DNA of 50,296 nt, taken from contig JYFJ02002827.1 of assembly GCA_000934665.2 (NCBI GenBank), forward strand, positions 1-50,296, in the 5' to 3' direction. Position 1 is the stretch's first letter. Each line of letters starts with the position of its first letter. The translations under genes were made by a program, and so were the position numbers. The notes under the pieces were generated by a model. It made no database searches and was not told the origin of the DNA. It saw only the letters and a list, made by a program, of their open reading frames with translations. Positions 4,685-43,928 of this stretch are shown here, piece after piece. The DNA is from Catajapyx aquilonaris (taxonomy: Eukaryota).

Positions 4685-6454
4685 TTATGAAAGTGGACCC
4701 TCCAAATGGCCCCCTGGTCCCCTGACCCCCCTGACTCCCGTGACTCTTTGTCCTGGTGATAATGACTTCTGCTTGATTTCGTCTAGTTGTTTAGCAGAAA
4801 TCTTGACAAATGTTCCCTTTCTTGTAGTCATCACCTCGGAAAACTTTATGCCAGATGGCATGGGAATGCTCTGACGACTGCCATAGTTGCGCCGAATCAA
4901 CATCTGTCCAGCCGGTAATCCTTGCCCTGGAGGTGCCTTTCCTTGACCACTACCTGCAGATGCAAAAAACTTTTGTGTTGGGAGGTAAACATTAAATGTA
5001 GATGATGACTTGCCTGATGGGGTTGGTTGCACTGATGAGGGTTGTGGTCCCACCAGCTTGAGAGACATCACCTCCTCATCATTTTCATCTCTGATGGTTA
5101 AGGCTGGAGGAAACTGGTGAGGTGACTCTGGGGTGTCCTCCGGTTCATACTTCACCTCTTCAGTGCGTTCTCCATACCCCCGGTCAAATATGACACGCCC
5201 ACCCCGTCCTATTCGGCGTCGTATTATCCCGACTTTGGAAGGGGCCTGCGAAACTGGAATATCTGGTACCTCTGGTACATCTTTTGGTGCTAGGTAGGTG
5301 CAGTTCTCCCTTGGGCGAAATGCAAATGGATCTTCATCAGCTGACTCATCATCACTTTCTTGGTCATATTGCTCAGGTAGTGCATGAAATCTAGTTTTCC
5401 CACCGGTTGACAAAAACCGCTTAGGAACAGTTGGTGGTGTATCCTTCAGGTTCACCCAAGAAGGCTTGCCAGGATGGAACTTCTGTGCCGGAAATTTTCC
5501 ACCCAGTACCCAGTCTGCATCATTACCATGCTGCAGCGGTCCTAATGATTTGCCTTTTAGTGGTGCTCTTGCTGGTGATGGAGGTGTCACCTCACGAATC
5601 AACTTGCCGTCAAAGTCTCCTGCACTGTATCTTGCCTCAAATATCTTCAGATTCATCTTGAGCTTCTCTTTTTTCATTGTTTCCCGACGAGACACTAAGT
5701 CAAGCAGTGTCTGCACTTGACGTGTGTCATGTTGCAAGTCCAACATTTTCTCATATGATCCTTCATCATTCTTTCTATTGCGACGTGTTTGCATACGTCC
5801 AGAGTGACGGCGAAAAGCTACATATGGGTGGTTACCACTGACAGGTTCCGTCTTGGTACGTATCAGAAGAGGGCGTTGCAGTACCAAACGCTTATTCAGC
5901 CAATAGTTGTACACATTCGTTACAACATCATTAGGGGATTTAATAAATAACTTTTGGGCTTCCTCCAGTGGAACCACCTTATTTACACTTTGTGCCTCCA
6001 AACGATCTACCATTCCCTCAAATGCAAGGCCTTCCACATCATTAGCTGAACACCACTGCTCATCATCCGAATCCATGTCATAGTCCGGCGGTGTTACATC
6101 CCCACCGAGTTGTTCTGCACGTATTAACTGCTCCGGTTGTGTGTAGTTACATGGATAGCACCGATCGTATTCTTCCGGATCAGATATGTCAAGTACCCCT
6201 GGGGTTGGTATGGGATTTCCTTCATGTATAGCTTTTTGCAGGTGGTGCTCACATTCCTCATCCTTATCCATGCCAGTAGGCATCTGCGGTACACCACGGG
6301 TGATTCCAGTTTCTGGCAAGTCAGACCTGTCCTCACCAGCATACATGATCGTCATTGGTCTAGAAGGGTCCAGAGCACGTGCACGAAATGACAGCTTGTT
6401 CTTTGCAGGACGTGAAGTCGCACTCGTTGAAGTTGAAGGGGCCGTGGGACTCAT
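4685..6454 (-). CDS. EPC: Enhancer of polycomb-like protein (NuA4/TIP60 scaffold family), 589 aa, single-exon CDS
   Basis: EPcA motifs KLSFRARALD, VPQMPTGMDKDEECEHHLQ, PDYDMDSDDE, HPYVAFRR, MQTRRNRKNDEGSYEKML. EPcB motifs DPFAFRPR..TYLAP and RRRIGRGGRVIFDR. gccATG context; splice acceptor (ttttcag) just upstream, exon starting at 6487. Confidence 0.93.
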   Translation of the reverse strand: MSPTAPSTSTSATSRPAKNKLSFRARALDPSRPMTIMYAGEDRSDLPETGITRGVPQMPTGMDKDEECEHHLQKAIHEGNPIPTPGVLDISDPEEYDRCYPCNYTQPEQLIRAEQLGGDVTPPDYDMDSDDEQWCSANDVEGLAFEGMVDRLEAQSVNKVVPLEEAQKLFIKSPNDVVTNVYNYWLNKRLVLQRPLLIRTKTEPVSGNHPYVAFRRHSGRMQTRRNRKNDEGSYEKMLDLQHDTRQVQTLLDLVSRRETMKKEKLKMNLKIFEARYSAGDFDGKLIREVTPPSPARAPLKGKSLGPLQHGNDADWVLGGKFPAQKFHPGKPSWVNLKDTPPTVPKRFLSTGGKTRFHALPEQYDQESDDESADEDPFAFRPRENCTYLAPKDVPEVPDIPVSQAPSKVGIIRRRIGRGGRVIFDRGYGERTEEVKYEPEDTPESPHQFPPALTIRDENDEEVMSLKLVGPQPSSVQPTPSGKSSSTFNVYLPTQKFFASAGSGQGKAPPGQGLPAGQMLIRRNYGSRQSIPMPSGIKFSEVMTTRKGTFVKISAKQLDEIKQKSLSPGQRVTGVRGVRGPGGHLEGPLS

Positions 6455-6818
6455 GGCTGATCCAACAATGAAACCAGTAGAGTCAGTCTGAAAAAAGCAA
6501 GAGCAAACTGCAGAATTTCTAATATCAGCATGTATGCAGTCATGTGAGCCAAAGAATATGCAACCGACCAGACAGCATATTAGTAAGAATCATCCTCTAA
6601 GCATGTGGGTCGTCATTGCCTGACCCAGCAATCCCATCTACACATCCTCTTTCAATCCCCCAAAACCAATATAGTGGCAGGAACTTGAAGGTCATGTAAA
6701 CAAATTATTACGGCCTGTTCATTTTGTTGGTGCATGTTACAACTGCCCCATTACAGAAGTAAACTCCAAAAGTGTCCCAGCTCTTAACTGCCAAAATAAG
6801 TAAAACCTAGCTACATGC

Positions 6819-7553: not shown

Positions 7554-8358
7554 CCTACACTACCTGAGGGCTGCAGGCTCCACTCTCGAAGTAATACTTG
7601 TGAAAAGTTAGGTACATGCTATGATAAGGTAATTGCAACCCAATAAAATTGTTTTCTATCCTAAATAAAATTTTTGGAGCATGCCTCCAAATCGCCTGTT
7701 ACAGTTGGCAGCCATGACAATTGTGACTGGGCACAAAAACATCAGATGCGAATGGAATGCATATAGGATTGAACAGCATTTACTGCTGCATCGGGGGGAT
7801 ATGTTTCCCTCATTTTAACCCTTCTTATTAACATTCCAATTCTAGACTCTCAGTTGACTAGGAAGTAGCTTCATATCCACCTTAAACGAGCCCATGGCAG
7901 TAAAATAAGTAAATAAACATTCCACCTTATTCCCTTACACATGCATCTAAGTACAAGTTAAATAACCAGGGAGACATGACACAACCCTGCTTAACCCCAA
8001 CACTAATGTTAAACCAGTCAGAGAAACCCCCACTAGTTCTAACATATAAGCTCTATACTCTCTTCATACAATGACATTACAGCCTCCAACAGGCGACCCT
8101 TCACTCCATAGAGACTCAGAACTTCCCACAAACCTTCCCTACTTATTACTGTGTCATAGGCTGTCTCTATAAGTCTACAAAGGCAACATAAACCTTCTTA
8201 TTGTTTACAACTAAATACTTTTCTATCACGAGTCTCATACAGAATATCTCATCTACACAACTCTTCCCGGTTTTGAAACCAGCAATGCTGGTATGCTGGT
8301 GTTTGCTGGTCTTGCTGGTTTCAAAACCAGCACGAAAAGTGCATGCTAAGGATTTGAT

Positions 8359-8395
8359 AGAGAATACTGAATATTCAGAGTGGGTTTATGTCGGG

Positions 8396-8426
<31 letters not shown>

Positions 8427-8867
8427 TCTCTCCCTCTCTCTCCCTCTCTCTCCCTCTCTCTCCCTCTTTCCCCCCCCTCTCTCCCTCCCTCCCTCCCTCC
8501 CTCTCTCATCTCTCTCCCTCTTTTCCCCCCTCTCTCTCCCTCTCTCTCTCCCTTCCCTCCCTCCCTCTCCCTCCTTCCGGCGGGGGGAAAGGGAGAGAGA
8601 GAGAGAGAGGAAGGTGGGAGGGAGGGAGGGAAGGGAGAGAGAGGGGGGGAGAGAGAGGGAGAGAAGGAGAGAGAGAGAGAGGAGAGAGGGGGGGGAGAGG
8701 GAGGGAGGGAGAGAGGGAGAGAGAGAGAGACTTTCTTTTCTTTTTCTTTGTTCTTTTTTTTCTCTCTCTCTCTCTCCCTCCCTCTCTCTCTCTCCCTTCC
8801 TTCCTTCCCTCCCTCTCTCCCTCCTTCCGGCTGGGGAGAGAGAGAGTGGGAGAGGGAGGGAGGGAGA

Positions 8868-8938
<71 letters not shown>

Positions 8939-8975
8939 CCCGACATAAACCCACTCTGAATATTCAGTATTCTCT
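8359..8975. mobile_element. 38-bp inverted repeats enclosing CT/GA microsatellite tracts
   Basis: agagaatactgaatattcagagtgggtttatgtcgggt (8359-8396) / acccgacataaacccactctgaatattcagtattctct (8938-8975). Interior is (CT)-(GA)-(CT)-(GA). Confidence 0.75.
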
Positions 8976-9089
8976 GACTTGTGACCCTCTTATTCTATCA
9001 AAACCTTAGCCTACACTTTTCCTGGTACACTTAACAGACTAATGCTGCGATGATTCTTACATATAATAATAATAATGATGATGATGATG

Positions 9090-19591: not shown

Positions 19592-21896
19592 GCGACCATC
19601 TTGTTCTAGGGCCATATTGCAAGAGAAGCATCGTTCTGCCGCATTGCAAAAATGGCATCCGCACTCAACATCTCGCTTTACTCTTACCTGTGCGTGTGCT
19701 CTAACAGGAAGAGGACATCTAGGATGGATCGAAGGATACGTGACTGAGAGAATGAATGGGTGAATGATTGGATGGAAAGATGGATTGGATAGCAGGATGG
19801 GGCTCCACAGACATTACTGTCTATAGGTGGCCATTGCTTTTCTTTTCGCGCAGGAACACTCTGTTTCTCATCCTTCATTTTTGTTTAAAGTTTCTGTGCA
19901 AACCCAAATTTTGGTTGGTTTTTGTGCAATCCACAGCTTTCGTAGCACTCCTGTCTGTGTTACTCCAAAAATCATGGGATGAAGTTGCGGTTTTGTCTTG
20001 TTGATGTTGTGTAGAGAAAATAGCAGCATCCTAATGTTTCCCTTTACAGCTCCTGTTATGTACTATTGTTCGATTTCTGCGCTTAGAGCAACTTGTGGGA
20101 GTGGAGGTAGAAAAGTGTTGGAGCCTCACATGTTGCAGTTTAGGTGAGAAGAGACTTAAGAGAAACCGTTTCTAGTGCCTGCAGGGGGGGCAGGGAGAAA
20201 TGTCTTCCCAGGTGACTGCCATATTGTGAGATTCAGATATATGAGCAGCATTGCATACAACAGCATTTTTTGTCGCTACAGTGTGCCAAGGCTAAACTAA
20301 TAGCTACAGTCGAGAAGTATTGGATTTTTTTCAATATTTCCTAGGCCTGTTTTTTCATGCTCCCAAATCATGCGAATAAGTGACCACCCCATTCATTTCA
20401 CCAAAACTAATGTTCCATGTTGCTCAAAAAAAAAAGTGAACTCGTGTAAAATACTTTCTTGATCATCATTTGTTTCATTACTTGGACTGCATTGGCCCTT
20501 CATTGGTGCAAAATGACTATTTAATTGTTAAAATTTTTGGCTTGATGAAAATGATAAAACATTGTTGGCTGAGATAAAGACTTCATTTTTATGTGATCTG
20601 TTTGCCTCTCTCCATTTTATCCTGACGTAATTTGCACGTGCCCTGTAAAAAAAATAACCTGGGAAAAAGAATACCAAAAAATGTCCTAAGGTCATAAACA
20701 GTGCTATAATAGTGGGCTGATGTAGTGACCTCTGCATTCTCTGGGCTGGTAGTCCAATAAGAGGCGTGATCAGAAAATGTTTGTATTCTGACGTAAATAT
20801 GCCAACCTCTCGGTTCATTGGCATGTTTGGTACTGATTTATATGCTCGGGGAGTAACGTTATAGATCAAAGAAGGGAGAAGGACTTTTATCCACTTCTTA
20901 TACTACTAAAGTTGACGTACATTTTTGGTACCAAAACTTATGCTAACCCTTCTGTTGGATGTTTCAGAAAGCTTTTATGATCACGATACAAACATTTCAA
21001 TCCTCAATCGTTTGTGATGTGGGATAAAAGAATCGGTTTTACTTGAGGTTACGCCGCATAAAGGCTCACTGTTTCAGTCAGTGATATTATTGTACAGCAT
21101 TTCAAATAAACATGACCTGGCTCCTTCATCACGACATCCACGTATCACCTGAAGGGATTTTTTTGTCTCATATCAGCCCTTTTTTTTAAAAAAAATGATC
21201 AATAACGTATGGAGAGGACTAAACCACACGCACGCATTACCTGGAGACCGCATTGCTATTCTCTTTCATATCGATTGGCCAAATCAAAAGGAAGGAAGTG
21301 AGTGGACAGCGCAGTAAGGACAAAGCATGGCAATCAAGCGTGAGTATTTATAATCACTGTGATAAATAGTTCAGTAAAGCACATTATTTTTCTTAGAGCA
21401 CAATAATTAAATGTAATTTAAAACGCTACAGTACATTTATGCAAAGTGCTGTGTCCTAATTGCAGGAATTGACTGTATTTTTTTTAGATATGTTACGTTG
21501 CACTCAGAAAATGACTTTTATAATACCTAAACACCAAATATTTTCTCCATGATTAGTGGGTATAAACTAATAAGAATAATACGAGTCAGGTGTTGGGTCT
21601 GGAAAATGCAACTTAGAATGGTTGTATGGACTCAAATTAAGGGACCACCTCCATTGTCTATTGTAAAATCATATGCATAATCGGATATTTTTCCTCACTG
21701 CGCTGACTTGGATAAATTGCTAATTCCATCTTCTCTGATTCAATCTAAACTACTAAAAGCAACATTACTGTAATAGCCTTACCGTGACAAGGCCATACTG
21801 TAACTATTAGAACTGATGTGCGCTGTGGTTTCAAATAGATCTACAGTGGCAAAAGTAAGCAATAAGAAGTAGCTACACTATAGTATACCCGAAGTA

Positions 21897-22179
21897 CAGT
21901 GCTGGACATTCATTCCGTCATACTGCTAGTGACATTTTCCGATGCGGCAGACGTGCAAATCGAAGTGATAGAGTGCGAACCGTGCTAAAAAACGGTAGCC
22001 CTTGGGTGACGTCACTGGCTAGAGACAAGCCTTTTTTTCCATTGCCCCCCAGCCGGTGACGTAACTCAAGGCCTACCTCTTCTTACTCACAACAGCGCAC
22101 ACTCTTATCACTTCGATTTGCACTTCTACCGCATCATAAAATGTCGCAAGCAGTATGACGCGCTTAATGTCCAACATTG
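21897..22179. mobile_element. Degenerate Tc1/mariner-like foldback MITE
   Basis: TA|CAGTGCTGGACATT ... AATGTCCAACATTG, with long imperfect arms (e.g. gtgcaaatcgaagtgata / tatcacttcgatttgcac). Confidence 0.7.
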
Positions 22180-22341
22180 CACATGGTATTTATAATTGCG
22201 AACTGTGGCACTCTTCTTGATCTGCAGGATCCATATCGGCCAACTTTAGGGAATGCTGCTGCTTTAGGAAACATTGTGAACAGCTGTTTCTCTCAGTGAC
22301 TTTTATCTTTACTAGCCTAGAGATAACCATACTGTTCAAAA

Positions 22342-25300
22342 ATGGCCAATGAAAACCTGCGCCCAAGGCAACTGGTGCTTGCTTCAACGCGAGCTCCTCA
22401 TCTGTCCCAAGTCACTTCAGCACTGCGTCCTGATACCATGTTAATCAACTACTCATACGAGGATGATGCTCTTCCAGACATCCTGAGTGAGTCACTATAA
22501 TAGTGATATAACGCAATCGAAGTAATAAATGAAAAATTTTGGTTTCCCTTTAGATTTGGCCAATAAAGGATTGGGAAACGTGAAAGTAGAAAGTGTAGCC
22601 TTTCTCACACACAGTTCTGAAATGGAAATTTTTATATCCTCGCCTGATAGCAAGGTAAGATTTTTAGAGTGGTAAAATGTGTTACCACTCCCTCCCAGAA
22701 TTATATAACTTAACACACCACAATTGTTGGCTAGGTACTGACAGCACAATCTGCTAAGTCGGATGAGGCTATTAGGGACTTCATGAAGAACTTGGTCAAC
22801 ACTTTTGTGGACAGAAACTACCCCCAACCTCGCCTGGATTTTCTGTGCTGTTACGCTGCATTGCATTTCCATGGCCTAAGAGTTGCTCACGAATTAGACA
22901 CACTTTTAAACGTAAGTTTTAGGCCAGATTGCACCAACCGTACTTGGGTTTTCCTCTTACTAATCCTTGTTATATCCGTTAAAGAAAAGTATCCCAGATT
23001 TATTATTCATATAATCCAACTATACCTATATGGTCAACATTTTGTCAATATTTAGATTCCAGTGGGAATCTGCAAGGACTTGCTGGGCTTGGAAGCTCAA
23101 GTTGGGCTTCATCCTCTCCCAGCATGTTCCCTTGGGGAAGTCTATTTCAACGTCGTTGTGCTGGAAGAGAAACTGAAAGAATCCATGGAAGGGTCACCCA
23201 AACATATAAAAAACATGGATGCGTACGAAAAGATCCGTACTGTAGGAAAAGGTGATATTAGCAAATTCGTGCAATACAAACAGTCTCTAATAAGTATGGC
23301 ATGTCTATTACAGGAGCTTTTGGCACGGCAGTCTTATACCGAAGGAAAGACGACGACTTTCTTATTATTGTGAAGGAAATCAACATGCATGATTTGACAG
23401 CTGCTGAGAGACAGCTAGCGTTGAACGAAGCGCAGATGCTTTCCTTGATGGATCACCCCAATATAATTAGGTAAATGAGCAGTTGATGAAGTGGCTTCCA
23501 GCTAGCTTAATGTGCCGCATTACTTACAGTTACTACGACAGCTTCGAACACGATGGTACTTTGATGATTCAAATGGAGTATGCCGATGGCGGTACATTGT
23601 CCCAGTACTTGAGGAAACAAAATAATCATCTGAGTGAGATGGAAATTTTGGGCATTTTCAGACAAATAGTGATGGGAATACGCTACATGCATGAGCAAAA
23701 CGTATTGCACAGGTGAGTGGACTGTTCTTATTTGTTGATTTGGGGTCAAACACCTATTACTCATCTTTTCAGAGATCTTAAAACTGCAAACATATTTCTG
23801 AAGAAAGATGGATCTGTCAAAGTGGGTGATTTGGGAATAGCAAAAATGCTCACCACAAGACATGGAAACGCTCAGACTGTACTGGGAACACCATATTACA
23901 TTAGTCCAGAGATGGTAATTATAACGTGGTCATCCCTTATAAAATCACATGCATCAAAGACAGCAGAAATGGGCTGATTCTGTGACTTTTACCTTATCAA
24001 AGTATTATTTTTATACTTTCAGTTAGCAATTAGGCAATTAATGGCTCTGTAGGCCCTATACAGTAATGTGAAGTAGCCTATTTCTTCTCAGAAGTTCTAC
24101 TGCTCCAAGAGTACTTGATTTTTAACAACACAACTATAAAATATAATAATTACTGAGACATGAGTTATTGTTACGAATTTATTGTACCATAGTATTTTAA
24201 AAAATTTAATCGTGCTGATTATATGAGTCCATTGCACTTTAATAACAACAAGTTCTTTTGACTTTCGTATAAACTGAATAAAAAAATCCATACAAATAAT
24301 ATAAGTAATATCCTTTATACCATCTTGACAGTGTGAAGGGAAAACGTATGATAAAAAATCGGACATTTGGGCATTGGGATGCATAATCTATGAAATGGCA
24401 TGTCTTCAGAGGACATTTGAAGGCTCCAATCTTCCTGCTCTTGTCAACAAAATAATGAAAGTAAGTTATAAGGTAGGTTATAAGTTATTTAACCAATATT
24501 TTGATTTCCGTATTTCTAGGGGCAATTTCAACCCATACCAGGGGATTATTCCCCTGGATTTCGTCATATGATACATGATCTCTTGCAAAGAGATCCTGAC
24601 TTTAGACCTTCAGTAGAAGAACTGCTCGAAGTCCGACTGCCTTCTTTGATGGGCTCTCAGTACGATGTGAATCGTGAATACAAAAGTTTATCCGCTAATA
24701 TTAGTGCAAAGACATTCTCAAAAAGTTTTACATCAGAAAGTCAAAATTCAACGGATCGGTAAGTAATTTTTTTTATTTGGTCGGCTTTAAGGCGAAACCC
24801 TACTGAAAATATCTCGATTTTGACTGAAAAATGCGATTTTTAGTTTTCTTTGGTTTTTTTAAAGCTTCTCTGGACCCTAAACTAATAGGAAACATCCAAT
24901 TTAGTATACCTGGCGACTCATGAAAGTGCTTTAAAAATTCCCCAGAATACCGCATCACATCCAAATCACCAAAATGCAGGCATTCCTTGATTTCTATTAT
25001 TTAATTTTTCTGCATGGTCCCAAACCGTCTCATAAATAGGCATAACGAGCGACCAATTTCAAATTCCCGGCCGAAATTTTTCTTTTGAGTGAGCCATCTA
25101 CTGGTGGGCAGTCAAATCTGGAGCTAAGCATAAGGAAAGGAAGTTGAGTAATAGTTTGTTCATTTGTTGTTGTTGAGACTGCGTCGTACTTGAGGATTGG
25201 ACTGTACTGCCGTTACCCGTACGGCCGTACTCTTCTCCAACGTTGCTGAGCAATAGCAAGTGGTGTGGGACTACCAACCAAAACAGGCACCCAAAACAAC

Positions 25301-28300
25301 GCTACAGTAGGGGTAAGATAACTCGTGCGTTTGGGGAGGTGTAGGTGGCTTATTGTGTCCTTGACAACCATAATTAGACCCGCTCGCTGTTGAGTTTTTT
25401 TTGTATGGAATTTAGAACGATTGGTGGGGAAATATTTCCCCTCTTCTGGGCGTAAAGTGTACACAAACTCATCTCATTCCTGAGGTTTTAGACATAACGC
25501 CCATCTCCTTTGAAATCGAATCCTGATTGGTCAACTGGTAGGGGGCGGGGCTAATAATTATGGTTGCCAAGGACACAAGCCACCTCCCATAACACATGAG
25601 TTATCGTGTCCTTACTGTACAAGGGGAAGCCCTGTCTGAAGCTACCATTGCTCTTAGCAAGAGAAGGGATGAGAGGAGGAAGAGTGAGGTACGAAGTGAA
25701 GCTGTAGCCAAGAGAGAGCGCAAGAAAATTCACAGGGCCAAGAAGACTGATGAAGCTGCCCAAAAAAAGAGGAGGGACCAACATATGGGGCTGCAATGTT
25801 CTGAAAAATTGAACAAATCTGTTTATCAATTTTCATACGTGTTTTTCTCAAAACAACCTTTTTCAGCGTTCTAACCGTTCCATGTGTCTCAGTTTTTGTC
25901 GTAGAGGGTTAGGTATATGCACAAACCATGTTTAAGGTGTGAGGAACAAAACTGAGCATGGCCATTATCGTTACTTGACAACTTTTTTTAATGCAAATAT
26001 TTGTTCGAGGAAATTTGCCATATTTTGATATTTTACTTTAGTACGTGCACATAAAAAAATCTGCAGATGAATTTGCTCAACATCTGCTATTGCCAATGCT
26101 CAGTTCTGTTTATTAAGATTGTATTAGTGTGTGAGAAAATATCTGATGTCTGAATCACTTTTATAGACGCATGGAGCGTTTACAAGTTATCAATGAAGAA
26201 TGTGTTATATAGGCCATAAAATCTTAACAACTGAACATAACTAATTAAAAATTGTTTTAGGATATTCTTAAAGTATCTTCAACATGGTACTAACATGATG
26301 CCTTGATACGTTCAGTATCAACAAATATATTTTTTTCAGTAGGGTCTCGCCTTAAGTTCTTTTCATTATAAAGTTAAGTTCATTTTGTTTCCAGCAGTAA
26401 ACACATAATAAGCGGGGCAGTTGGGGTTATCCGATATTATAATGTCTCTACAGGGTGTCTAAACTTTTTTGTCCGATAACTGATCGGACAAAAAAGTTGA
26501 GACACCCTGTATATACTCTAATGATGCTTTTTTTTTACATGTTAGTAATGCATATTGTTAATTGCCATTTAATTTTTGCATGCCTCTCTGGTACAGGAAA
26601 ACAACACAGACACGGTACTGTATATGTGTTGTACTACGAACATAGTTATCTAATTGCTTTGTGAAAACGTCCTTAACCCTTAACTAGTAACGTGGGGTCA
26701 TTTTTGACCCCAAGCTTGCGGAAATTAGCACTGTCAAATAACTGGTTAATCAAGAGCCAAAAGCTTGTGTGTATTCCTCGATCACATCTTTGTTTATGTG
26801 TTAATAACCTTTAAATTTTTCAAAAAAAATTAATAGCGGTCCAAAAACGGCTATAACAAAGGTTATGTGCGGCTGGGGTCAAAAATGACCCCACGTTACT
26901 AGTTACGTTTGGATTCCTCATTCCTCTTGGATTCATGCCTGCCAGTGAGAAGCTTTTATTTTTTTGCTTCAAACGGTCAATGCAGTTACCTCTATCAATG
27001 AAATTTGTAGTCATCAACCTTAGATACTTTACAATACAGGTGGCCATGTACTAATGGCAAACCTGCCATAGACGATGCAATAATAAAGTTTTTTGCCCGA
27101 GATATTAATAATACAACTATTAATGTAGAGGAAATATATTCATCTTTTTACACACCTAATATATATAAAAATTTGTAAATAGTTTCAGATATGGGTTTGG
27201 CCTGCGCTCTCTATACTTATACACTGTCATATAGCCGTTATTTTGAAAGTATTACTTGTATGGCATTTAATGTAGAGGACATATCATCATCATTTGAGAC
27301 TTTATATAGAGAAAGCGTATTTATGAATTGTTAGCGTTGGCGGCTGCTGAGGTATCTATAATTATACGCAGTTGACGACTATTTGCATAGATATCACACT
27401 TAGTAACGTGACCTATAAGTTTCTTTTATTACCTACGCATCGTCCATAATGTAAACTTAATTTGCATGGCTTTAAAATTTTAATTTTATGAATTCGAGAT
27501 CAAATATAATTCAATTACCACGTGGGGTCAAAAATGACCCCACGTTACTAGTTGCGTTGCTCGAGTTCACATTACTAGTTAAGGGTTAATTATTTTGGTG
27601 CTATGCAATAAGAGGTTATTAACGAAATAATTGGCACATCTAAGGCTATACGTAAGCTAACTATTGCAGTAAATATAGTGTTTAGAAACTGTTATTATCG
27701 ACTAATAGTTTTCTCTGTAACATCTGGAGTGCTCTGACGTTGATTGTAATCATGCAATGCAAAAATCGTGTCAAAATAATTCAATCCTCTTTGTACAGGT
27801 CTGTAGTATATCATATGACAGCTTATGAGTCGGGCATATCTCTAGCTCCAGTTCCACTTCCTCCACGTAGTCGGATCAAAGAACTCTCCGTGAGCAACAG
27901 TCACATGATCGCATTAACTGCAGGTATGTTATGGATTTTATTTTACTATGCCTGGAAATTCGAAGTAAAAGTCGTCTCAAACGTATTTTCAAAATTGGGT
28001 TCGAACCCAAGACCTGACTATCCCGACTTTTTTCAGAGTGGTTGGTATTCACTTGGGGAGAAGATCGTAAAGGTCAACTGGGTCACGGTCAGTTGGAGCC
28101 GTGGAGATCACATCCTGAATGTGTAGAAGCACTCAAAGGAAAAGCCATAACTAGGTAAGATGGAATGTAAGAGATTATTAGTAGCATAATTATAGCCGTT
28201 TATGGTCACTAACGACTTGTCAATTTTCAGGGTGGGTGCAGGTGAAGGATTCAGTGTGTTTGCCAGTGACACAGGCATGATGATGACTTGTGGAGACGGT

Positions 28301-31300
28301 ACCTTCGGATGTTTGGGGCATGGTGACTGGAACAGCACATCTCGTCCCAAACTCATTGGTAGGTTACTCCAGAATTCATCTTCATGGCATAATAGAGCAT
28401 ACCATTTGGTCTATTAGTAACATTGAAATCACTAAAATGTGAACAAAACGAGTTGCCTCTGGGACTATAATAAATAATCGTCACTAGTTTTGGGACACAA
28501 AAGTGTCCCCGAACGATATTTTTCTTTCCATTTGTTTCTACCGTTTGTCACGCGGTTTGGCATAATGACTCGAACTTCGGGACCATTTTTAATAAACACT
28601 ATACCTTTAGGACCAGTTTAGGACGCTTCAGTAAAGTATTTTAAACTCACCTTCTCTTTATGATGAGTCATGAACGTTGCATTTCAGAAACTCTTTTAAG
28701 TGTAGATGTAGCCTTAGTGAGTTGCGGACCTCAACATGTTCTGATTGCAAGTGGTGAAGGAGTCGTATACTCCTGGGGTCGCGGCGATGGAGGTCGCCTC
28801 GGTCTGGGTCACGAAAATGACTGGTGAGAGTTCACTTGATTTGAGAGTTAACATAAGTTATATTCAGTGTACGCTAGTAAAATTCATTGATTTCAGTTGC
28901 TTGCCACAGGAAGTCATTTTGCCAGAAGATGTAAGGATCAGAAAAATTGCATGTGGTGGAGACGGAACAATTTTAGTTGCAGAGGATGGTGTTATGTATG
29001 CTTGTGGCAACAATGCCGCAAATAAACTTGGATTGGAAGAGAAAAAAGGAATCATGGCTTTTGCACGTCTTGTACCTTTGAAGGTGAGCTACACCATATA
29101 CTTAAGTTAATATATTTTGATTATGTTATAACCAAGTAATTGCATGACACAATTTGACATGGACATACAGTAGGCCTACTGTATAAGAACACTAGGTTGA
29201 ATCTTCATTCAACACCTTGACATTTTTTCATGGTCACTTGGAGTTTCAACTTACAAAGGCTATATAAGTTCCACTCTATTATTTTTTAAAAAAACTTTGT
29301 TACAATATTGCTACAGTATTGTTACACCATGGCTTCCCTATTGCGTAATAAACCCAGAAACGACGTCCCTGCTGTAACATGTGGGTTTCTTTACTAGATG
29401 TGTTGCCTGCCTCGAAACAAGCATGAACGATCAAACAATACAGAATAGTGATTTATTTTCGAATATTTAAATGGATATGTTTATATGTTTTATATGTTTA
29501 TATGTTTTTTTCTCTATAGTCCAGAGATGAAAAGGTGTTAAAACCTCGAAAGATTCGGTCAGTTCCTTGTCCTGTGGTGGAAGTTACCATGGGCCCTACC
29601 TTCACTGCTGTTCTCACAAATGAGGGAAACGTCGTGACATTTGGAAACAACAGTGAAGGTCAGCTTGGAAGAGGGAACTCCTATTACTCACCAAGCCCTG
29701 CACCTGTCAAAATAATGGACAACAAAGGTGTTTCTGTAAGTGCCGTAACTTATCAGATGAAAAGCGACTCCCACATAAGCTTACAGGGTGATCATTTGAC
29801 AGCCAATAAAATAACCATGCAAAAGTAACTTCTAAAAATAAGCAATCATGCCAACAAATAGCCATAGCGATCGGACAAGTATTTTGGATCACCCTGTATA
29901 CAGGGTGGTCCAAGTTCAAGTGTCGTTTTATAACGGCGATTAATAGAAGCACTTAACGATGACGTAGCAGCGACGTGTAAAATTTCCCACTTCGATTGCA
30001 CCGAAGATGTGCCGAAGTGGGACATTTTACGCTTCGCTGCTACGTCATCGCAAAATCACTGCTATTAATCGCCGTTATAAAGCGACACTTGAACTTGGAC
30101 CACCCTGTATACTCGTACAGTAGTAGTGCTGAAGACAGCAAAAATATTATATTGTTAATCTTCTCTCCCAGATGATACAATGTGGGCCTACATTCATGAT
30201 GGCAGGTACTGCTGACAATGCCCTGTACATGTGGGGAACCACATACATAAACCCCGATACGCCATCAGAGGTGAGTGTGAATTAAATAGGCCTACACGGT
30301 GTACTATCCCTATATGTTGATGATCCTCATATAGGGGACACCCCTGGAATTCAAATGCGAAATATTTCTGATTAATTCTTCTACTCTTTCCACCTCCCCT
30401 CTGGGGATTGTTAACATGGTATGTGACACCCTGTATATGTCCAAAACATGGCCTACTGTATAAATAATTGTCTTTTGTTGGGAACGATTTAAAAAAGGCT
30501 TCTTTCCAGCTCTCTGATTTGACCACAACAGGATCATCTTTGATACCAGGATCCTCTGTTCCATCATTGCCTCATGATTTTGAGGTGTAGTACCTATTGT
30601 CATTTCTTAGAGATATGTCTTACAATAACTATGTGACTGAATTCCAGAAGCAGAGGGATTCTGATTTTAGCGGCAGTAACCGCAGTAATTCACGTCTGCT
30701 CTCCTCTTACAAGCAAGACATCCGACTGCGACAAATAGTCACCGATCCTCAGGAAATTTTGGCGTAAGGTTTATGGTGCAAAACTTTGAAAGTTATGATT
30801 GAGAGACCCCTATACTGGTGGGTATTTGAATTTCTGTTGGACTAACTGTTTTAAATTACAATAACTGATTAATAATAGTAATAAATTGCTTAGTCTAAAC
30901 ATCTCTAGCCACTGTCAATGATGCTCTGAAAGTAATAATCAATTACCGCACTTCTTACAGACTGTACTCATCACCATCTCAAGTCCATTTGGGAGAAACG
31001 GTGAACTTGGTCAGCTTGCACTCCCAACACCAAAACGTCTACATTATGGTCGACACCACAGCTCCTCTTGCTAAATTGCCTGCAAACCTAAGGCCCCTTG
31101 AATCCGGGACACAGGACACACTTATATCAACTACAGTGACGCAGAAGAATAGCCAAGCTACGTCCCTTGCACCACATGTAGAAATATCTGAGGATGAATA
31201 TGAAGCTACTGTAGGACCGGTGAGAACTTATCAGATGACCTATAAAATGCTTGATTTACTTACAAAAATACCATATCTCATGGAGCAAGCCTACTAAAAG

Positions 31301-31711
31301 ATAGGGTCTGCAAAAAAGTTTCCAAACATAATTGGCATTTATTTTAGCACTGTATTAGCAAAGTACCTTCTTAGCAATCTCCCCCTCCTTGTATTCTTCA
31401 CATTTCAAAAGTACTGATGGTTGTAGTAGGTATAGCTACAAACTGGATAGGTGTGTAGGAACAGAACATTATTCGGCGTATAGTAAGCTTACTTGCCTAT
31501 ACCTTTCTTGATGCCATTCTATGTATGAGTATGTTAAAATTACTGTCATCTTGTCCAGGTACCTCAGTGGGTGCAGGCTGAACTCGACTCTTCGGATGCA
31601 GCATGGAAAGAAGAGAAATGGAAGGAACCATCTTCTCATCCATTTGGAATGAGCGAAGAAAGCACAGAACATGAACATGTTCCAGCAATAAATTCGGGAA
31701 TAACAAAGTAA
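22342..31711 (+). CDS. NIMA-related kinase of the NEK8/NEK9 (niki-like) type: N-terminal DUF4347-like domain + Ser/Thr kinase + RCC1 repeats, ~1001 aa
   Basis: 19 exons: 22342-22486, 22554-22654, 22735-22911, 23056-23251, 23314-23470, 23530-23712, 23773-23914, 24332-24460, 24520-24758, 27799-27923, 28037-28154, 28231-28358, 28688-28823, 28897-29083, 29520-29735, 30172-30270, 30648-30763, 30961-31219, 31559-31711 (3006 nt, phases consistent). Kinase motifs GKGAFG, VKEI, HRDLKTANIF, DLG, GTPYYISPE, SDIWALG. RCC1 motifs FTWGEDRKGQLGHG, YSWGRGDGGRLGLG, TFGNNSEGQLGRG. The C-terminal end is less certain. Confidence 0.9.
24791..26351 (+). mobile_element. Internally deleted Kolobok-type DNA transposon in NEK intron 9
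   Basis: TTAA|GGCGAAACCCTACTGAAAA ... TTTTCAGTAGGGTCTCGCC|TTAA (TTAA TSD, RR/YY ends). Remnant basic transposase tail at ~25620-25804 (RRDERRK...KKTDEAAQK, then frameshifted EEGPTYGAAMF*). Confidence 0.75.
26451..26509. mobile_element. 59-bp TIR-only Tc1/mariner remnant
   Basis: TA|CAGGGTGTCTAAACTTTTTTGTCCGAT-AACTG-ATCGGACAAAAAAGTTGAGACACCCTG|TA. Confidence 0.8.
26677..27585. mobile_element. Non-autonomous piggyBac element
   Basis: TTAA|CCCTTAACTAGTAA ... TTACTAGTTAAGGG|TTAA. Internal palindromic motif TGGGGTCA-(A/T)3-TGACCCCA at ~26693, ~26875 and ~27523. Confidence 0.88.
29784..29896. mobile_element. Short Tc1/mariner MITE
   Basis: TA|CAGGGTGATC ... GATCACCCTG|TA. Confidence 0.7.
29901..30107. 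mobile_element. Tc1/mariner foldback MITE abutting the previous element
   Basis: TA|CAGGGTGGTCCAAGTTCAAGTGTCG ... CGACACTTGAACTTGGACCACCCTG|TA; arms pair over nearly the whole length. Confidence 0.88.
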
Positions 31712-31980: not shown

Positions 31981-34900
31981 TCAATAACGCCTGCGACGTT
32001 TGTCTGGGATGCCTGTTTTGGGACTTGGCACGGAATATCCGGGTGACCTCTGAAAAAAATGCACAATTCTTAATTGCATTCGTGCAAACTTTTCCACCAA
32101 ATGCTAAGATCTGCGTTATGTAAATCTATGTTATTCACTAGTATTTACAATAAATAAATACTTTGTCACTGTCACTTCTGAGCCAGAATGAACAAATGTT
32201 GAGTTTTTACTGTCTTTGAATCTGTAATCTTATAATGATAAAAGGGTTTTCATTGCATTTTTTTTTTTTAAATTCATACCCCGTTATCAGCTCTAGGGGG
32301 GAAGTTTTTTTTTGTTTTGCCTGGAACTCTGCTTTCATTTTACTGCGCTTCTTGGGATAGGATAGGGGCGGAAGGAAGCGGCTGTGGCCTATTATAATTA
32401 CGGAAACAACTCCGGAATTTTCCTGGAAGGACCGTGGGAAACCACAGAAAACCACGGTCAGAGTTGCCGGCCCCGGGATTTGATCCCAGGACCTCCCGAT
32501 TAGCAGTCGGACACCACATCCCCTACTCCAAACTGCTTCGGTTTTTCATTGCATAATGTAAGAGATACATGAGTATTACCGCTCTTTCAGCAAAGGCTGA
32601 CAGTCCCATATGCAAAGCTTCCATCGTCATACCCTGCTGAACTGTGATAGCCATGATTCCCATACTTTGAGCCTCTACAATTCCAGATATGTCTTCATCG
32701 AAAAACAACACTTCGTGGGGTGAAAATTGTGATACACGCAGGATCCTAAGGAAAACAACACATTGGAATTAGCTGTAGCCTACACACTTCGCCCTCATAG
32801 TATTACCCTAGCAGGTTACCCGGTGCGGGTATGTTGGGGTGCTGATAAAGGTATAGGGGTACGTATAATTTATGAAGTTTGTTTGTAAAATGTGTGTACC
32901 AAATACCATACACTCGAAACTCAATATGCCTTAAAATAGGCCTTATTACAAGTCACAATAAGCCAGAGTTAGTCACTATCTGTGATAGTTTTCTCTTATT
33001 GCGTATTGTGACGTCTTCCATTTGACCTACCCTTTTGTCACACGGACTGACCTTCTTAAAGTGGTTACGGCCACTTTCTCCTTGTAGGTTCTGTTGGGGG
33101 GAATTTTCGGCTTGGAAGCCACTCCACATGTCCGCCGGACGGTCGGTCGGCCGTGCGTGGCCATGAACCATTGTGTGGGTTCCAGAATATGTTTCGGAAG
33201 CTACACCACATTGCTCGCACCTTCGCTCTACCCTCACATTACCCCCGCCCCTTACAAATTTCCTGGCTACGCCGCTGTAAGGAGGACCTAGCTGCTCCTC
33301 ATTATCCGCTGGCACCCCAATATTTGGGAAAAGCCATGATGTATATGAATGAATGAATTATTGTGAATGCCATCTACATATTATATATTATATAATACAG
33401 TATTATAGTATTGGCTTCTTAGCCATTGAAAATGAATTAAAGTAAAGTTGTACCCGGCACAGCTATTATCATATCGTTTAACTGTTATACAGGGACATAT
33501 AGCATAATGGTAAAATATAGTTGACATTGTAATGTGACTAATGTCTATCATATTGTAGGCCTAATATAGTTGACATTGTAATGTGACTAATGTCTATCAT
33601 ATTGTAATATAGTTAACATTGTAATGTCTATCATATTGTAATATAGTTAACATTGTAATGTGACTAATGTCTATCATATTGTAGGCCTAATATAGTTAAC
33701 ATTTGTAATGTGACTAATGTCTATCATGTCTATCATATTGTAATATAGTTAACATTGTAATGTCTATCATATTGTAATATAGTTAACATTGTAATGTCTA
33801 TCATATTGTAATATAGTTAACATTGTAATGTCTATCATATTGTAATATAGTTAACATTGTAATGTCTATCATATTGTAATATAGTTAACATTGTAATGTC
33901 TATCATATTGTAATATAGTTAACATTGTAATGTCTATCATATTGTACTGTAATATAGTTTTCATTATATTTTGTCATAGTAGCGGTGATTATGGTAGCAG
34001 TTATTTGTCAATCGCGCATATATGCACCTCCCTGTGTGTGACGGTTATTTTTTCCAGGTGACGTCAGTCGCGTCACGCGTCAGCATCCAAAATCAAAGAT
34101 GGCGACGTGCTGATTTATATTATTCCTTGTTTTGTTTGCGGATTTCCCTGGTTTGCCATGTTTTAGCGAGGCAAAAGGCCGTTGGCGTGAAGAAGGTAAA
34201 AAGAAGCAAGGTGAGTGGTTCAATAATGCTGTCAGAATTCGGTCGTGAAGGGCTCTAAGTCTTGGCTCTTGAGCGAGTCACATTTCATGCTGACTGCATT
34301 TTAATGAAAGTGTGAAAGGTACTTGTGTTGGTGTTGTCTGTGTGGCCTTAGAGTGACCGCACCAGTACTGTCCGTCTTGTGGGTCCCGCCCAGCGAACGT
34401 CATTGTGGCTCTGCCAATAAATAAATATATAACGAACACGTGGCCTCTCAGTCTTTTCCTGGGCCCCTGCAGTATGTAGGTAAGGTTTGCAGTTTGCAAA
34501 GCCACAATCATGTGTCCATGGCGGGTATCAGGAAACGAAAATGTGCAGTGTTAAATAGTGGGATCGTAATTAATGAGTGAAAATGCTAGATTGTATAACT
34601 TGCTGTATTAAGTGATTTTCAGTATTGCACTGCATCTGTTGCAATTGCCTTATTTTTAATCATTTTCAGGGCCATGTCGTTGGTGGAAAAAATCAAGAAG
34701 GAGATCAAGGAGGAAGAGGAGGAGGAGGAGGAGGAGGAGGAGGAGGAGGAGATCAAGAAGGAAATCAAGGAGGAGGAGGAGGAGATCAAGGATGAGATAA
34801 CGACAGAGGAGACATGGCTTCTTCAGATAAAGGAGGAGATGCCTTCCTGTCTGGAGGATGACCCCAACTTTTCTGATGGCTACCTTACAGGGGATAAGGC

Positions 34901-37900
34901 AGGTGTTAAAGTGGAGGAAGTTGAAGGCAGTGGGGTTGAGGTAATAAGCTTGTGGAATATCTCTGTTAGTTAGTTAGTCTGTAAGGTATATGGGTGATTC
35001 TCCAAAAACTTACCAATACTATTTCCCGGCATAATAACTCAAAAATGGATTGACTGAGAGAGTTGATTTTTTTAAACGTTTGTAGAAGCAGTTGACACCT
35101 AGCCATCAACATGCAAACAAAGAAACTGCAAAGAAATGTCTAATGGCCTAAAATCACTCCTCTTGGCATGTCCCAATCTTATTTTAAAGCATGCTATATT
35201 TTCTTACAATTTTATCATTAACATTAGACAAGTTCCAATACTATAATTAAATTGTACACACTTGAAGGCATAAAACAACATTTTAAAAACAATTTAATCA
35301 TTTGGCACGACCTTGCTGCATCACTCCAAATGTGTCCCAAGTTTTCATGTTACTCTCCCGGATCAGGATATTTTTTCAAAATTTGCAATGAAACAAAGGG
35401 ATTTTTAACTCAGCTATTTGGCAACACTGCTTCTCCATGACACCTTGATTTAACTACGGATCGCTGTGCAAGAGGTACGTCTCCTAGTGGGTTAAAAAAT
35501 TAAGGAGCTTTAAATTCAGTTATGTAGCACATTTTGCGTTCACACTCCTGGCTCACTTTTCTATGGCACATAATAACTCAAATGTTTTGAAATAAATGTG
35601 ATTCCATGGCATGAAGGAATGTTATCACCTGACAGATTTCTAGAGTCAACGTTTATTCTGGACATTGATATAATTATTGATATTAAGCCAGATACATCCG
35701 AAGGGAATTCTTCCGACTCCCAACATTCCTGACAATAATATTTAATAATATTAATATTTTAACAAAATTATCGTTATTGAACAAGATGCGACTGAAAAAA
35801 TTGGCCATCATCAACTAGTGTCTGAAAAATTAATATTAAAATTCCGGTAGCTTTTTAGTGCCTGCTGTGGCCATGTCAAGTGCAAAGAAATTGCAAATTC
35901 TCGACTTTTGAGCCCAGGTTTTCACTACCTAGTTCACTACTTGCGGGACAGATATTTAAAAACTGAGTTTCACTTTTTGATCTAATATTATGAGGAACAA
36001 CGTCCAATAAAAATTATTGCGGTTAACTGCAAACTCAATCCTGGAAGGTTCCAACCGGTTTCAAGCATTTTAGAATATGAGAGTTAGGTCCCCCTATTTT
36101 TACCTTGTTTGTGACCTCATATAGAGTAAATGTGAATTTTTCCTCATTTTAAAAACAAGTTTTGAAAGTCATTAATTTTTGCTTTGAAAATGGCAAGTTT
36201 TTGGAGAATCACCCGTATATGAGAGTATATGTGTAAATCAGATCATAACCGTGATATCAGAGGACTGCTCATTGTCGTCCTTAATATGACACTTAACCAT
36301 TACAAGCATTTAATTTCAGCCATCAGTGGGACATGAATTGTTGTCAGAGGACAGTGGTTTGATCCGCACTGTCAGTGTCAAACCAGGATCAGAAGCAGTG
36401 GAAGGCCCTTGCAGAATGGAAATTCTGAAGAGTTTCAGGATGAAAAAGCAGACCCATTCAGAAGAAAGTCTGGAGAAAGGAAAGGTGGGTCACATGGCAT
36501 ACAAAGCAGAATTATTGTATTGTTAAAATTTTTATGCTATATTTTTTTTGTAGGCAAGCTCAGATCAAGAGAGCACTAAAGTGCAGACTTTTTTCCCTTG
36601 CTCTGTCTGCGAAAGAGTGTTTGATGAGGAAAAGAAGGCCAGAGCCCACAGACGTACTCACACTACTTACCCGTGTGATGTTTGTGGTAAGATATACAAG
36701 ACTTGGGGAACTCTGATCAGCCACAAGGAAGCCCATCCAGGAGAAAAGCCCCACAAGTGCACCAGATGTGACAAGTCATTTTTTTCGGAGTTCAAGCTAC
36801 AGCTTCATGCTTCCTCCCATGACGCTGGTGATGGTGCTGAACTCGGGTGTCGCATTTGCAAGGTGACCTTCAGCAAAAGGAGAGCATTTTGGGCGCATAC
36901 CAAAGTTCATCAGCGAATTCATGTTTGCAATATTTGTGACAAGGCTTTCAAATCTGACTCTGACTTACTGAGGCATGCAACTGTACATGTGGAAGAGAAA
37001 CCATTTGCTTGCGATGTTTGCAACATAAGATTTAAATCTATGATGTCCATGAAATATCACAAGCTATCGGTGCATGTTGAGCAGGGGCAATTATTTAAAT
37101 GCAAATTCTGCCCCTCCACTTTCAAGAGAGAGGAATACCTCAACCGTCACTTGGGAAGATACAGGGGGACAGGCCCAGGGAGCACGAGGATACATAAGCA
37201 ACATCCACCAAAACCAGTCATTTGCCCCTATTGTTCTAAGGCTTTCAGAGGCAAGAGGGACGCAGAAGACCATATTCGGCAGAAGCACACTGGGGAGAGG
37301 CCTTACACTTGTGACATTTGCGAAAAAAGATTTGCAGGTAGACGCCATATCGCAAAGCATTTCAAGGATGTACACGTAAGGAAAAGCCACTCAAACAGCA
37401 ATAAATGAGTGAAATGTTTTTAAACTGACACTTGTGTTTGATTATTATGTGCGATGAATCCAAAGCAGTGCAGTGGTTGGGACATGGAATTTTAGATACA
37501 TTTTAATACTCTCAGGTCAAAAAATGTGCTATGATTTCTATTTTTTTAAAAAAAGGTATTCAGATGGCAAAAATAATGTAAATGAAAATTATGAGGCTGC
37601 CTACAAGCAGTCCTCTATTGGCAATAAGCATCTTTAGCCTACATCAACTGTTTTTACTTCTTTCAGACCTATTTTACTGCTTGCATACAAATGCTGGTGA
37701 AATCTCCATTAAACATAATAATAAATAATAATACAGCAATTATGTAACTAATGTACTATATCATATTATAACTAATATGATATAATAATATGATTAACAA
37801 ATATACTGTGCATTATAACCAATATGTCGTGGTATTATGTACTAATATCTAATGTCATGTCATGGAACACTAATATTTTTTCATGATATAGAGGCTAATA

Positions 37901-41089: not shown

Positions 41090-42334
41090 CACAAGCGACA
41101 AGGGTGCTCTCCGGACACAGAATATGATTTTTCCTACTGGCTTATAACTCTTGTAATCGGAGACGCCTCCACTGCTTTCTACTGAAAACATGAACCAGCC
41201 GCGCTCTAATATTAGGCGTATTCAGTAATTAGCGGAAAATCAGATTAGAGTCACGTGATGTCTGAGTTGCTGGCTCCGCCCGTTTAAGCTGATTTGCGAA
41301 CGGTTTGTTTGCAATAATATTTTCGAGGAAGGGCGGGTGGGTGGAGTGGCGTCTATTTCAAAAATTCCGCACTTCTGACCAGATAGTGCCGATATCGTGT
41401 TGGCCCATATTTTTGACGTTCCAAAATTAATTGTGGCGGTTATTCCATACGTATTACTACGTTTTAACATTGATAAATGTTAACAGTGACGACATCACTT
41501 GAATAAAATATAGACCTCACACTGCTTATTAAAATAGTCTGGTCTGCATTAATCAAATAGCCAAGAAGCGTTAGTCCATTTTCTCATTGCTGTCCTTAGT
41601 TCGACTTCAGTAGTGTTGCAGTTTGTAATAATTTGGCCCGCAACTTTCATTTAGAGAATGTTCCCTTGTCAGTGGGATCCAGCACGTGTTCATCGAATTA
41701 TTTTTATGCATTTTTCAGTCTCCACTAATCTTGGGAGTTTGTGGCAGATTCGAGTAGATTTGCCCAGTTCAAATCACAATAGTTAAAGGCACACAAGTGG
41801 TGAACTGGATATCGACTTGAAAAGACTTTTTAACATCACAATGACTATTACATCGTTTATTAAGACAAAATTGTCCTGTATGAGTGACAAAAAAAATTCA
41901 CGAAATTTGTTCAGCAAAAATGATGCCTTGTGAAATACCAGAGGCGCGTATTGGTTTTCTGACGGGTAGTTTGGTTGGCCCGCGCCTCCCTTGGGTTGGC
42001 TCCCCTGGGGTAGTAGCGGTTGGCGCGCTTGCGGAGGGGCCGCCCAGCGGGGGCATCGTGAAACAGGGAGAAGGAGAAAAAATTAATGGAACGTAAGAAT
42101 ATGTATACCAAATGCTGGCTTTTGAAGAGTGAGACAGTTTAGTATGAATTTTACCGTCAAATTAAAGTCAATCTCATAGCAGATTACTTGAAGCGGCTAC
42201 TTGTAAATGTCAAATTTAATAGCAGTTTAAGGTAGCAGCTTCTCAGAGGTAGCGACTACGAAGTAGCAGCTAAGCTACTTTCGTCCGATCATTGCTTCAG
42301 TGTTCAGTGTTCGGTGATCGTCTGGCAGTTGAAG

Positions 42335-43493
42335 ATGGAAGAGAAGGAGCCCTTGATCAGCACGGAGGAGTGCCCGGAGGAGGAGAAGGAGGAAACAATG
42401 GGTTGCATGCATTACAAAAGGAAATGCAAGCTCATTGTGAGTATTGTCAGAATGTATTTAGAATGTATGGGAATGTATGAGAACATTCAAATTGTTCCGC
42501 AGTCGCCATGTTGTGGACTCGTCTACACATGTAGATTTTGCCACGATGAACGTGAGGACCACACTTTGAACCGTCGGGATGTGCAGGAGGTTACCTGCAT
42601 GAAGTGTGAGGCTCGCCAGGAGGCACGGAGGGATTGCGAGAACTGCGGTTCTGTCTTTGGAGAGTACTTTTGCGCCTATTGCAAGCTGTTTGATGACATT
42701 GACAAGCAGCAATATCATTGCGATGGGTGCGGGATATGCCGCATCGGAGGCAGGGAGAATTTCTTCCATTGCGAGAAGTGCGATATGTGCCTCCCTGTGC
42801 AGCTCCAAAACAACCACAAGGTAATTGGCTGCTGTATGTATGAATAAACCGAGGGGTTAGTCACTTATGAAGTCCTTCGTACACCGAGACTGAAGTCCAG
42901 GTGAAGTCCAGCAGAACAAAGTTCGTGAGTCCTTGGAAGTCTGTGAAGTCAATCGTACACTACAGTATCAAGTGACTGACCCCTCAGAAAATATTATCAG
43001 TAGAATTGATATTAAATGTGCCATGTTTATGTTCCAGTGTATTGAGAAAGTGTCACGGTCTAATTGCACTGTGTGCCTGGAGGACATCCATACGTCCCGT
43101 ACACCCGCACACATTCCACCATGTGGACATCTTATTCACCGGAATTGCTTTGAGGATCTTCGCAAGGCAGGACATTACGCTTGTCCCACATGCCAGGTCT
43201 CCATGGTTGACATGTCAAGGGTATGTTTCATTACGCCAATGCAGGTCTTGGGACAGTTCAAACTAGATTCGTTGGTTCTTACAGATTTGGGCGCAGCTGG
43301 ATCATGAGATCCAGACGACACCAATACCGCCAGAGTGCCAGGACTACTGTGTCAACATCCTCTGTAGGGACTGCCATCAGGTAAAAGAAATGTGGTTGAA
43401 TGTGGCGTTGAGCGTTTTCCGTCCAAAATCAATGCCAGGTTTTTGTGTGTTATGATGAATATGGCTGTTTATAGGCATCCTAGATGGGGGGGG

Positions 43494-43526
<33 letters not shown>

Positions 43527-43928
43527 GGTGGGTGAAGTAAATTGTCTTCTGTCTGATTGAAATAGTTTCATCAGCTTTCATAGGATGTATCAAATGTAGT
43601 CCTGACGTTTGGCTCTTTTCAGGTGGTTTTGATAGAGTACCATGTGGTTGGTCTGAAGTGCAGCCTTTGCGGCTCGTACAACACATGCATGGAGGGAGCT
43701 CCGTACAGAGTACCAGGAAGAGGGACTGAGCAGTCAAACCATGGAGAAGTGGGCGAAGGAGGGGAAGGTGGCTCAAGGATGGACGCAAGCCCGTTGGTCA
43801 TCGATGAGAATGGCGAGGGTGAACAAGAGGATGATTACGAAGAATTTGCACAGGAGGTCAGCGAAGAGGAAGAAGGGGCTGTGGGTGGGGTTGTAAATGG
43901 AACCAGCAACGAGAACTCCGAATGTTAG
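42335..43928 (+). CDS. RCHY1: RING finger and CHY zinc finger protein (Pirh2), copy 1, ~334 aa
   Basis: Exons 42335-42436, 42503-42820, 43038-43220, 43285-43380, 43623-43928 (1005 nt). CHY (GCMHYKRKCKL..PCC..CRFCHD), CTCHY (YHCDGCGICRIGG), RING-H2 (CTVCLEDIHTS..PCGHLIH..C..CPTC), zinc ribbon (CRDC..YHVVGLKCSLCGSYNT), acidic tail. Confidence 0.95.

Follow-up and report, generated by a model that had tools for sequence, protein, structure and literature searches.

NEK8 is a ciliary kinase that, in vertebrates, begins at the kinase domain. The kinase domain is followed by RCC1 repeats in vertebrate NEK8 and NEK9, and to our knowledge neither protein carries a DUF4347 head. Here we describe a gene with the same order of kinase and RCC1 repeats in Catajapyx aquilonaris, on contig JYFJ02002827.1 of assembly GCA_000934665.2; the whole 50,296-nt stretch is referred to below as the window. 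The gene has an additional N-terminal domain, the head, that is encoded largely by exons upstream of the kinase. Comparison with orthologs supports membership of the head in DUF4347 (PF14252). We favor, with moderate confidence, the interpretation that the head derives from a protease, is now mainly non-catalytic, and serves to regulate or position the NEK8/9-type kinase.

The described DUF4347 proteins differ from the window gene in the context of the domain. ECT2L carries the domain internally, and the remainder of the protein is not a kinase, whereas in the window gene it is N-terminal to a kinase. A preprint places ECT2L at the transition-zone B-tubule by fitting predicted models into a cryo-electron tomography map; the fitted density has multiple α-helices and does not reveal the role of the DUF4347 part (bioRxiv 10.64898/2026.06.11.731632). 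Among the cyanobacterial genomes that we sampled, 38 of 151 have PF14252, often in multiple copies (up to 20 matches) and in open frames that reach 12,749 aa. Where examined, the domain is close to the beginning of such a frame (residues 104–266 in L132). These cyanobacterial domains, the heads of giant surface proteins, belong to the same family as the window head by profile comparison, but they precede repeat-rich proteins and the window head precedes a kinase. In Pseudomonas aeruginosa, PA0256 (Tce1) has been described as a DUF4347 protein (PMC8262886). A 2026 paper presents Tce1 and Tce2 (PA2372) as putative cysteine proteases with models similar to the protease domain of TcdB, names the dyads His186/Cys240 in Tce1 and His65/Cys115 in Tce2, and reports that the yeast toxicity of Tce2 is abolished in a C115S mutant (PMC13323088). 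Unlike the window protein, Tce1 and Tce2 are secreted type VI secretion system effectors that are loaded into Hcp rings.

The window gene is on the plus strand. Its start codon, ATG 22342, is in good context (caaaaATGG); an in-frame TAA (22324–22326) is located five codons upstream, with no AG between the two. The five 5ʹ exons (22342–23470) are separated by introns that are all GT..AG, with compatible phases. Exon 1 (22342–22486; residues 1–48 plus 1 base, with a GTGAGT donor at 22487) contains the ATG and encodes the first strand-helix-strand of the DUF4347 domain. Exon 2 (22554–22654; AG acceptor at 22552–22553, GTAAG donor at 22655) encodes a strand with His68 at its end (VESVAFLTH), and exon 3 (22735–22911; acceptor AG at 22733–22734, GTAAGT donor at 22912) encodes a helix, then the RLDFLCC strand that contains Cys121, and then a further helix. 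Exon 4 (23056–23251; AG acceptor at 23054–23055) encodes the last domain strand (IPVGICKDLLG), a conserved linker (GEVYF...) and the beginning of the kinase as far as the glycine loop. Exon 5 (23314–23470), preceded by a GT..AG intron, encodes kinase. The spliced product begins MANENL..., with a leader of 7 residues ahead of the DUF4347 domain, and the glycine loop of the kinase, GKGAFG, is at residue 205. Exon 4 lies in a single open frame (23056–23373) that encodes both the last head strand and the first part of the kinase (YEKIRTVGKG); no splice is therefore needed to join head and kinase. This exon matches a full-length ortholog profile at positions 203–272.

Downstream, the spans that we report are those of profile matches rather than exact exon borders. 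Kinase-coding exons extend from 23314 to 24705 (PF00069; ortholog profile positions 262–528) and RCC1-repeat exons from 27779 to 30270 (PF00415; ortholog profile positions 532–872). All four kinase exons tested matched PF00069 and all five RCC1 exons tested matched PF00415; the gene has the NEK8/9-type layout of a Ser/Thr kinase followed by RCC1 repeats, as had been proposed from the sequence alone in a preliminary description of the locus. Part of the C-terminal region is located at 30917–31666, where there are weak collinear profile matches (E 6e-4 and 0.3) and a tblastn match with P0022 (30962–31078); the end of the gene was not located. In total, the full-length ortholog profile has 18 collinear plus-strand matches between 22348 and 31666.

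What is the evidence that the additional exons are coding? We built a profile from the N-terminal cores of 19 orthologs, cut ahead of the kinase-proximal linker. This head-core profile matches the spliced product with 129.7 bits (E 6.2e-39), well beyond what chance would produce, and the alignment has no gaps over 145 positions (profile 4–148, window residues 8–152). Among the 1,689 six-frame open reading frames (ORFs) of at least 20 aa in the window, the profile matches only the three that contain exons 1, 2 and 3 (E 2.2e-6, 4e-5 and 3.7e-12, respectively); the next best ORF has an E-value of 1.2. A tblastn match with P0022 spans 22562–22642, within exon 2. With a kinase exon as query, we retrieved five long invertebrate proteins, from Capitella, Mytilus (two) and two crinoids, and the N-termini of these proteins align with the spliced window product. 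The predicted gene model that joins the head exons to the kinase is confirmed by comparison rather than by RNA. Hence, the earlier proposal that three extra exons splice in frame onto the kinase is upheld by GT..AG borders, fitting phases and the ortholog-profile match. The extra N-terminus is real, but it was underestimated at ~185 aa; about 197–204 residues precede the kinase.

Searches with single exons found nothing because the window head is only 28–34% identical to each individual ortholog. For exon 3 alone, a word-indexed protein search yielded three candidates, none of which scored, with no usable words in common, and none of four single window exons matched PF14252 in a Pfam search. 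An exhaustive HMMER search of 1.84 billion representatives with exon 3 alone returned a sole match, the 1,391-aa repeat protein P0001, which we took to be spurious. The longest open frame in the head span is on the minus strand (22495–22875, 126 aa) and overlies exons 2 and 3 together with introns. It had no match in profile searches, and it looks like a shadow frame of the kind that an ORF track would display in place of the true exons.

A search with the head profile identified 22 proteins, all with kinase and RCC1 families: 7 echinoderm and 7 mollusc rows, 2 annelid proteins, one from the brachiopod Lingula, 4 from aphid-group insects and 1 other. The source names of these orthologs mix “Nek8” and “Nek9”, and a precomputed PF14252 tag is present on only two of the 22. 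Invertebrate proteins named Nek8-like or Nek9-like, such as those of Owenia fusiformis (P0018), Lingula anatina (LOC106159131, P0013) and Acyrthosiphon pisum (“Nek8”, P0026), have head, kinase and RCC1 repeats in the same order as the window gene. The kinase exon of the window is 65% identical to its best orthologs, and the short 7-residue leader resembles that of the aphid proteins. We interpret the window gene as a probable ortholog within a bilaterian family with a DUF4347 head, a NEK8/9-type kinase, an RCC1 propeller and a long C-terminal tail. The C-termini of 15 of the 22 orthologs have a CaaX-like sequence, S[KR][VI]Cxx[SQN] (e.g. SKVCVVS and SKICSLQ), which is missing from the aphid proteins; by the usual rule, such a terminus predicts prenylation of the kinase. 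In the window, a short plus-strand frame at about 34480–34560 ends in ETKMCSVK followed by a stop near 34544, a putative end similar to the CaaX-like termini.

The preliminary description knew of no functional account of this architecture. We found no paper linking DUF4347 to a NEK kinase, and no paper naming PF14252 or IPR025592, in the literature searched; where DUF4347 is mentioned in papers on Biomphalaria and Chlamydomonas, it is as a table entry with no bearing on this subject. Nonetheless, with 22 proteins already in public protein sets, the head-kinase-RCC1 architecture is not new to databases. The window contributes a divergent member; the new points are the link between animal heads and putative proteases of the Tce1 type, and the mosaic loss of the dyad.

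The assignment of the window head to DUF4347 is supported through its orthologs. When ortholog heads were scanned alone, 14 of 19 matched PF14252 at E≤1, and the Owenia head reached 36.9 bits (cut-off 24.6) over profile positions 1–161 of 164. When three full-length orthologs were compared with PF14252, the sole match was that of Antedon, and it was weak (E 0.017). Comparison of the animal heads with bacterial DUF4347 domains by hhalign gave 95% (E 3.8e-8, 151 columns); when the window was placed in the first row and the comparison was made with 40 domains of 30 genomes, the values were 96.4%, E 1.2e-9 and 125 columns. Together, the Pfam matches and profile comparisons are in agreement with the DUF4347-like head first suggested for this locus. 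The suggested resemblance to a region of ECT2L was also found: the head profile matches PDB chain 11xu_A1 (ECT2L) with E 1.9e-9 (profile 6–181, residues 289–460), and the matched residues include the strings quoted in the preliminary description, HVDFF among them. A protein-atlas look-up pointed to three DUF4347 clusters (score 0.76), which we treat as a lead only. Comparison of the head alignment with prokaryotic genomes gave 10 pattern matches, none of which was confirmed.

An AF2 model of the Owenia head (pLDDT 87.9, pTM 0.83) has alternating strands and helices, with His64 directly after the strand at 58–62 and Cys116 directly after the strand at 110–113. The single standout among its structural matches is Tce1, itself a DUF4347 protein, and the model suggests a fold like that of the solved member. 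With the animal head profile, Tce1 was not found by sequence at E≤10. Foldseek searches of the head against the PDB gave nothing at E≤0.001; the weak matches were to SGNH hydrolases, short-chain dehydrogenases and small GTPases. Among viral models, the best structural match is a Hint-domain protein of Cafeteria roenbergensis virus (E 7.5e-6). No toxin protease domain or caspase was among the 50 matches listed in either VIA structure search. The proposal of a protease-like module gains outside support from the Tce1 match, but the fold searches gave no clear placement among caspase-like (clan CD) folds.

Bacterial DUF4347 domains from a cyanobacterial genome show the motif SHG...YGC that had been described for this family, with the His behind the third main strand and the Cys behind the core strand that comes next. 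Among 40 cyanobacterial domains, the His is present in 39 and the Cys in all 40, and SHG-PG and YGC are kept with hardly an exception. In a profile comparison, the His of SHG and the Cys of YGC align with His68 (codon 22610–22612) and Cys121 (codon 22849–22851) of the window, in agreement with the earlier statement that AFLTH and LDFLCC occupy these positions. Three residues that follow the His, a Gly, a Pro and a Gly, are invariant in the nine domains of one cyanobacterial genome but absent from the window.

Conservation of the pair in orthologs, on which the protease proposal had been made to depend, is found in about half of the family. The animal rows, which include the window itself, number 22 for His and for both residues together and 23 for Cys; His is present in 15/22, Cys in 18/23 and both in 11/22. 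At the His column, the substitutions are Ser in all six mollusc rows and Leu in Capitella; at the Cys column, they are Ser in Sinanodonta and three aphids, and Thr in P0022. ECT2L has neither residue; Asp occupies the His column and Pro the Cys column. In contrast to the partly conserved dyad, Arg115, Asp117, Ser62, Phe98, Tyr171 and Phe172 are invariant in 21/21 rows. Loss of one or both dyad residues in half of the rows, with retention of the domain, indicates that constraint on the dyad is relaxed in animals. The lineage-wide substitution by Ser in molluscs suggests that the His site is still under some constraint. In the mollusc proteins P0003, P0004, P0014, P0015, P0019 and P0020, the Ser that replaces His is followed by Cys at the next position (LSCS or MSCV).

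An alternative explanation is that the head is an active clan-CD-like cysteine protease wherever His and Cys are kept, including in the window, and that it cuts its own chain, in the manner of toxin protease domains, or a substrate, making the protein a bifunctional kinase-protease. We consider this unlikely, and protease activity of the head in C. aquilonaris, although possible, is unlikely. It is true that His68 and Cys121 are at the columns of a nearly invariant bacterial pair, with the equivalent residues of the ortholog model each at the C-terminal end of a different strand, and that their spacing of 53 residues is close to the 54 residues reported for Tce1 and the 50 for Tce2 in a paper that also describes the loss of Tce2 toxicity in C115S (PMC13323088). 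The same paper, however, treats the activity of Tce1 itself as only putative. Moreover, the 11 rows that keep both residues are matched by 11 of 22 in which at least one is lost from a conserved domain, quite apart from ECT2L, and the window has neither the Gly after His nor the Pro-Gly of the nine cyanobacterial domains. Furthermore, only 7 residues are ahead of the domain, so cleavage upstream of it would release nothing. Several observations nonetheless weigh against our preferred interpretation. Both dyad residues are kept in the window, in 7/7 echinoderm rows, and in Lingula, Owenia and Daktulosphaira, which could reflect selection for catalysis in these lineages, and the His+Ser pair of aphids could in principle still provide a nucleophile pair. 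In addition, the exon junctions rest on splice signals and ortholog collinearity, and the window head by itself gives no significant match to a bacterial profile (0.3 bits, E 0.65; 0.75% in a single-sequence hhalign comparison), so that its DUF4347 membership is transitive, via orthologs. A version of the protease explanation that differs between lineages is quite improbable in our estimation: a NEK kinase would have a head, inherited from bacteria or giant viruses, that is still competent as a protease and cuts its own chain or a partner, with activity kept in echinoderms, brachiopods, some annelids and C. aquilonaris, and with the head serving only as a scaffold in molluscs, aphids and vertebrate ECT2L. 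If true, proteolysis and phosphorylation would be coupled in one, possibly ciliary, signaling enzyme.

Two further explanations concern the gene model and the family assignment. Exons 1–3 could belong to another transcript or be unexpressed, with the kinase translated from ATG 23185 or 23215. Both ATGs are in frame within exon 4, and a start at the kinase would be as in vertebrate NEK8. However, the open frame begins as far upstream as the acceptor at 23056 and exon 4 encodes the last conserved head strand, the splice product aligns without gaps with 19 orthologs, and head and kinase are in one chain in all 22 related proteins, from four phyla. We regard such an artefact as very improbable; an additional, shorter isoform that lacks the head is possible. 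The head could also be a generic Rossmann/flavodoxin-like α/β domain that resembles DUF4347, and has His and Cys at these positions, by chance. The range of folds among the weak Foldseek matches, the lack of PF14252 matches for single exons, and the lack of significance of the window alone against the bacterial profile would be expected of such a domain. This possibility is largely refuted, and we give it the least credence, since an Owenia ortholog is above the curated Pfam cut-off and 14/19 heads match at E≤1, profile comparisons reach 95–96%, the one structural match that stands out is to a DUF4347 protein, and the columns of His and Cys are exactly those of the bacterial domains.

How might a mainly non-catalytic head act? 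We propose that it is a three-layer α/β domain with its origin in the bacterial DUF4347 fold (the solved member of which, Tce1, is a putative His/Cys protease) and that His68 and Cys121 of the window gene persist at the ancestral dyad columns. The role of the head would be non-catalytic: it may dock through the conserved linker directly ahead of the kinase (GE[LMV]YF, then KLKNW in most orthologs). A link to cilia, via ECT2L and the NEK8 family, is conceivable. As a hint of ciliary regulation, we scanned the whole window for RFX X-boxes (GTNRCC, 0–3 bases, RGYAAC) and found no match.

An inverted repeat is located 160–450 nt upstream of the start codon. Its arms (21894–21970 and 22106–22182) are 77 nt long, 83% complementary and 135 nt apart, and within the spacer are two CRE-like octamers, TGACGTCA at 22007 and TGACGTAA at 22057. 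The repeat is the sole copy in the window, and may represent either a palindromic element of a promoter or a small transposon. Downstream of the kinase gene, a multi-finger C2H2 zinc-finger exon (36554–37408, plus strand; PF00096, E 7e-31), preceded by a frame rich in Glu/Lys repeats (34599–34973), probably belongs to the next gene. Further downstream, two near-identical copies of a CHY zinc-finger and RING gene (42236–43928 and 49020–50101, plus strand; PF05495, E 8e-15 and 1e-14; RING, E 8e-9) are a tandem duplication, about 6.8 kb apart. Just ahead of the second copy, at about 48700, the translation of the frame 48614–49024 contains an X, indicating at least one N (an assembly gap or an ambiguous base). 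On the other side of the kinase gene, a long simple repeat of the CT/GA type (8192–9009) can be read without stops in several frames of both strands (translations SLSLSL or ERERER). A 634-aa open frame on the minus strand (4688–6589) had no Pfam match at E≤1e-4; by eye, we presume a likeness to enhancer-of-polycomb-type proteins.

The gene described here places a kinase family found from echinoderms to aphids alongside ECT2L, recently located at the ciliary transition zone, through a conserved domain, N-terminal in the kinases, that the two share. Work on NEK8 and NEK9 has been almost confined to vertebrates and nematodes, which are without the head, and gene models that begin at the kinase omit about 200 residues. 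For animal DUF4347, the comparison offers a concrete and testable origin in a bacterial fold for which a cysteine-protease function has now been proposed. A natural experiment is provided by the lineages that have the His/Cys pair and those that lack it.
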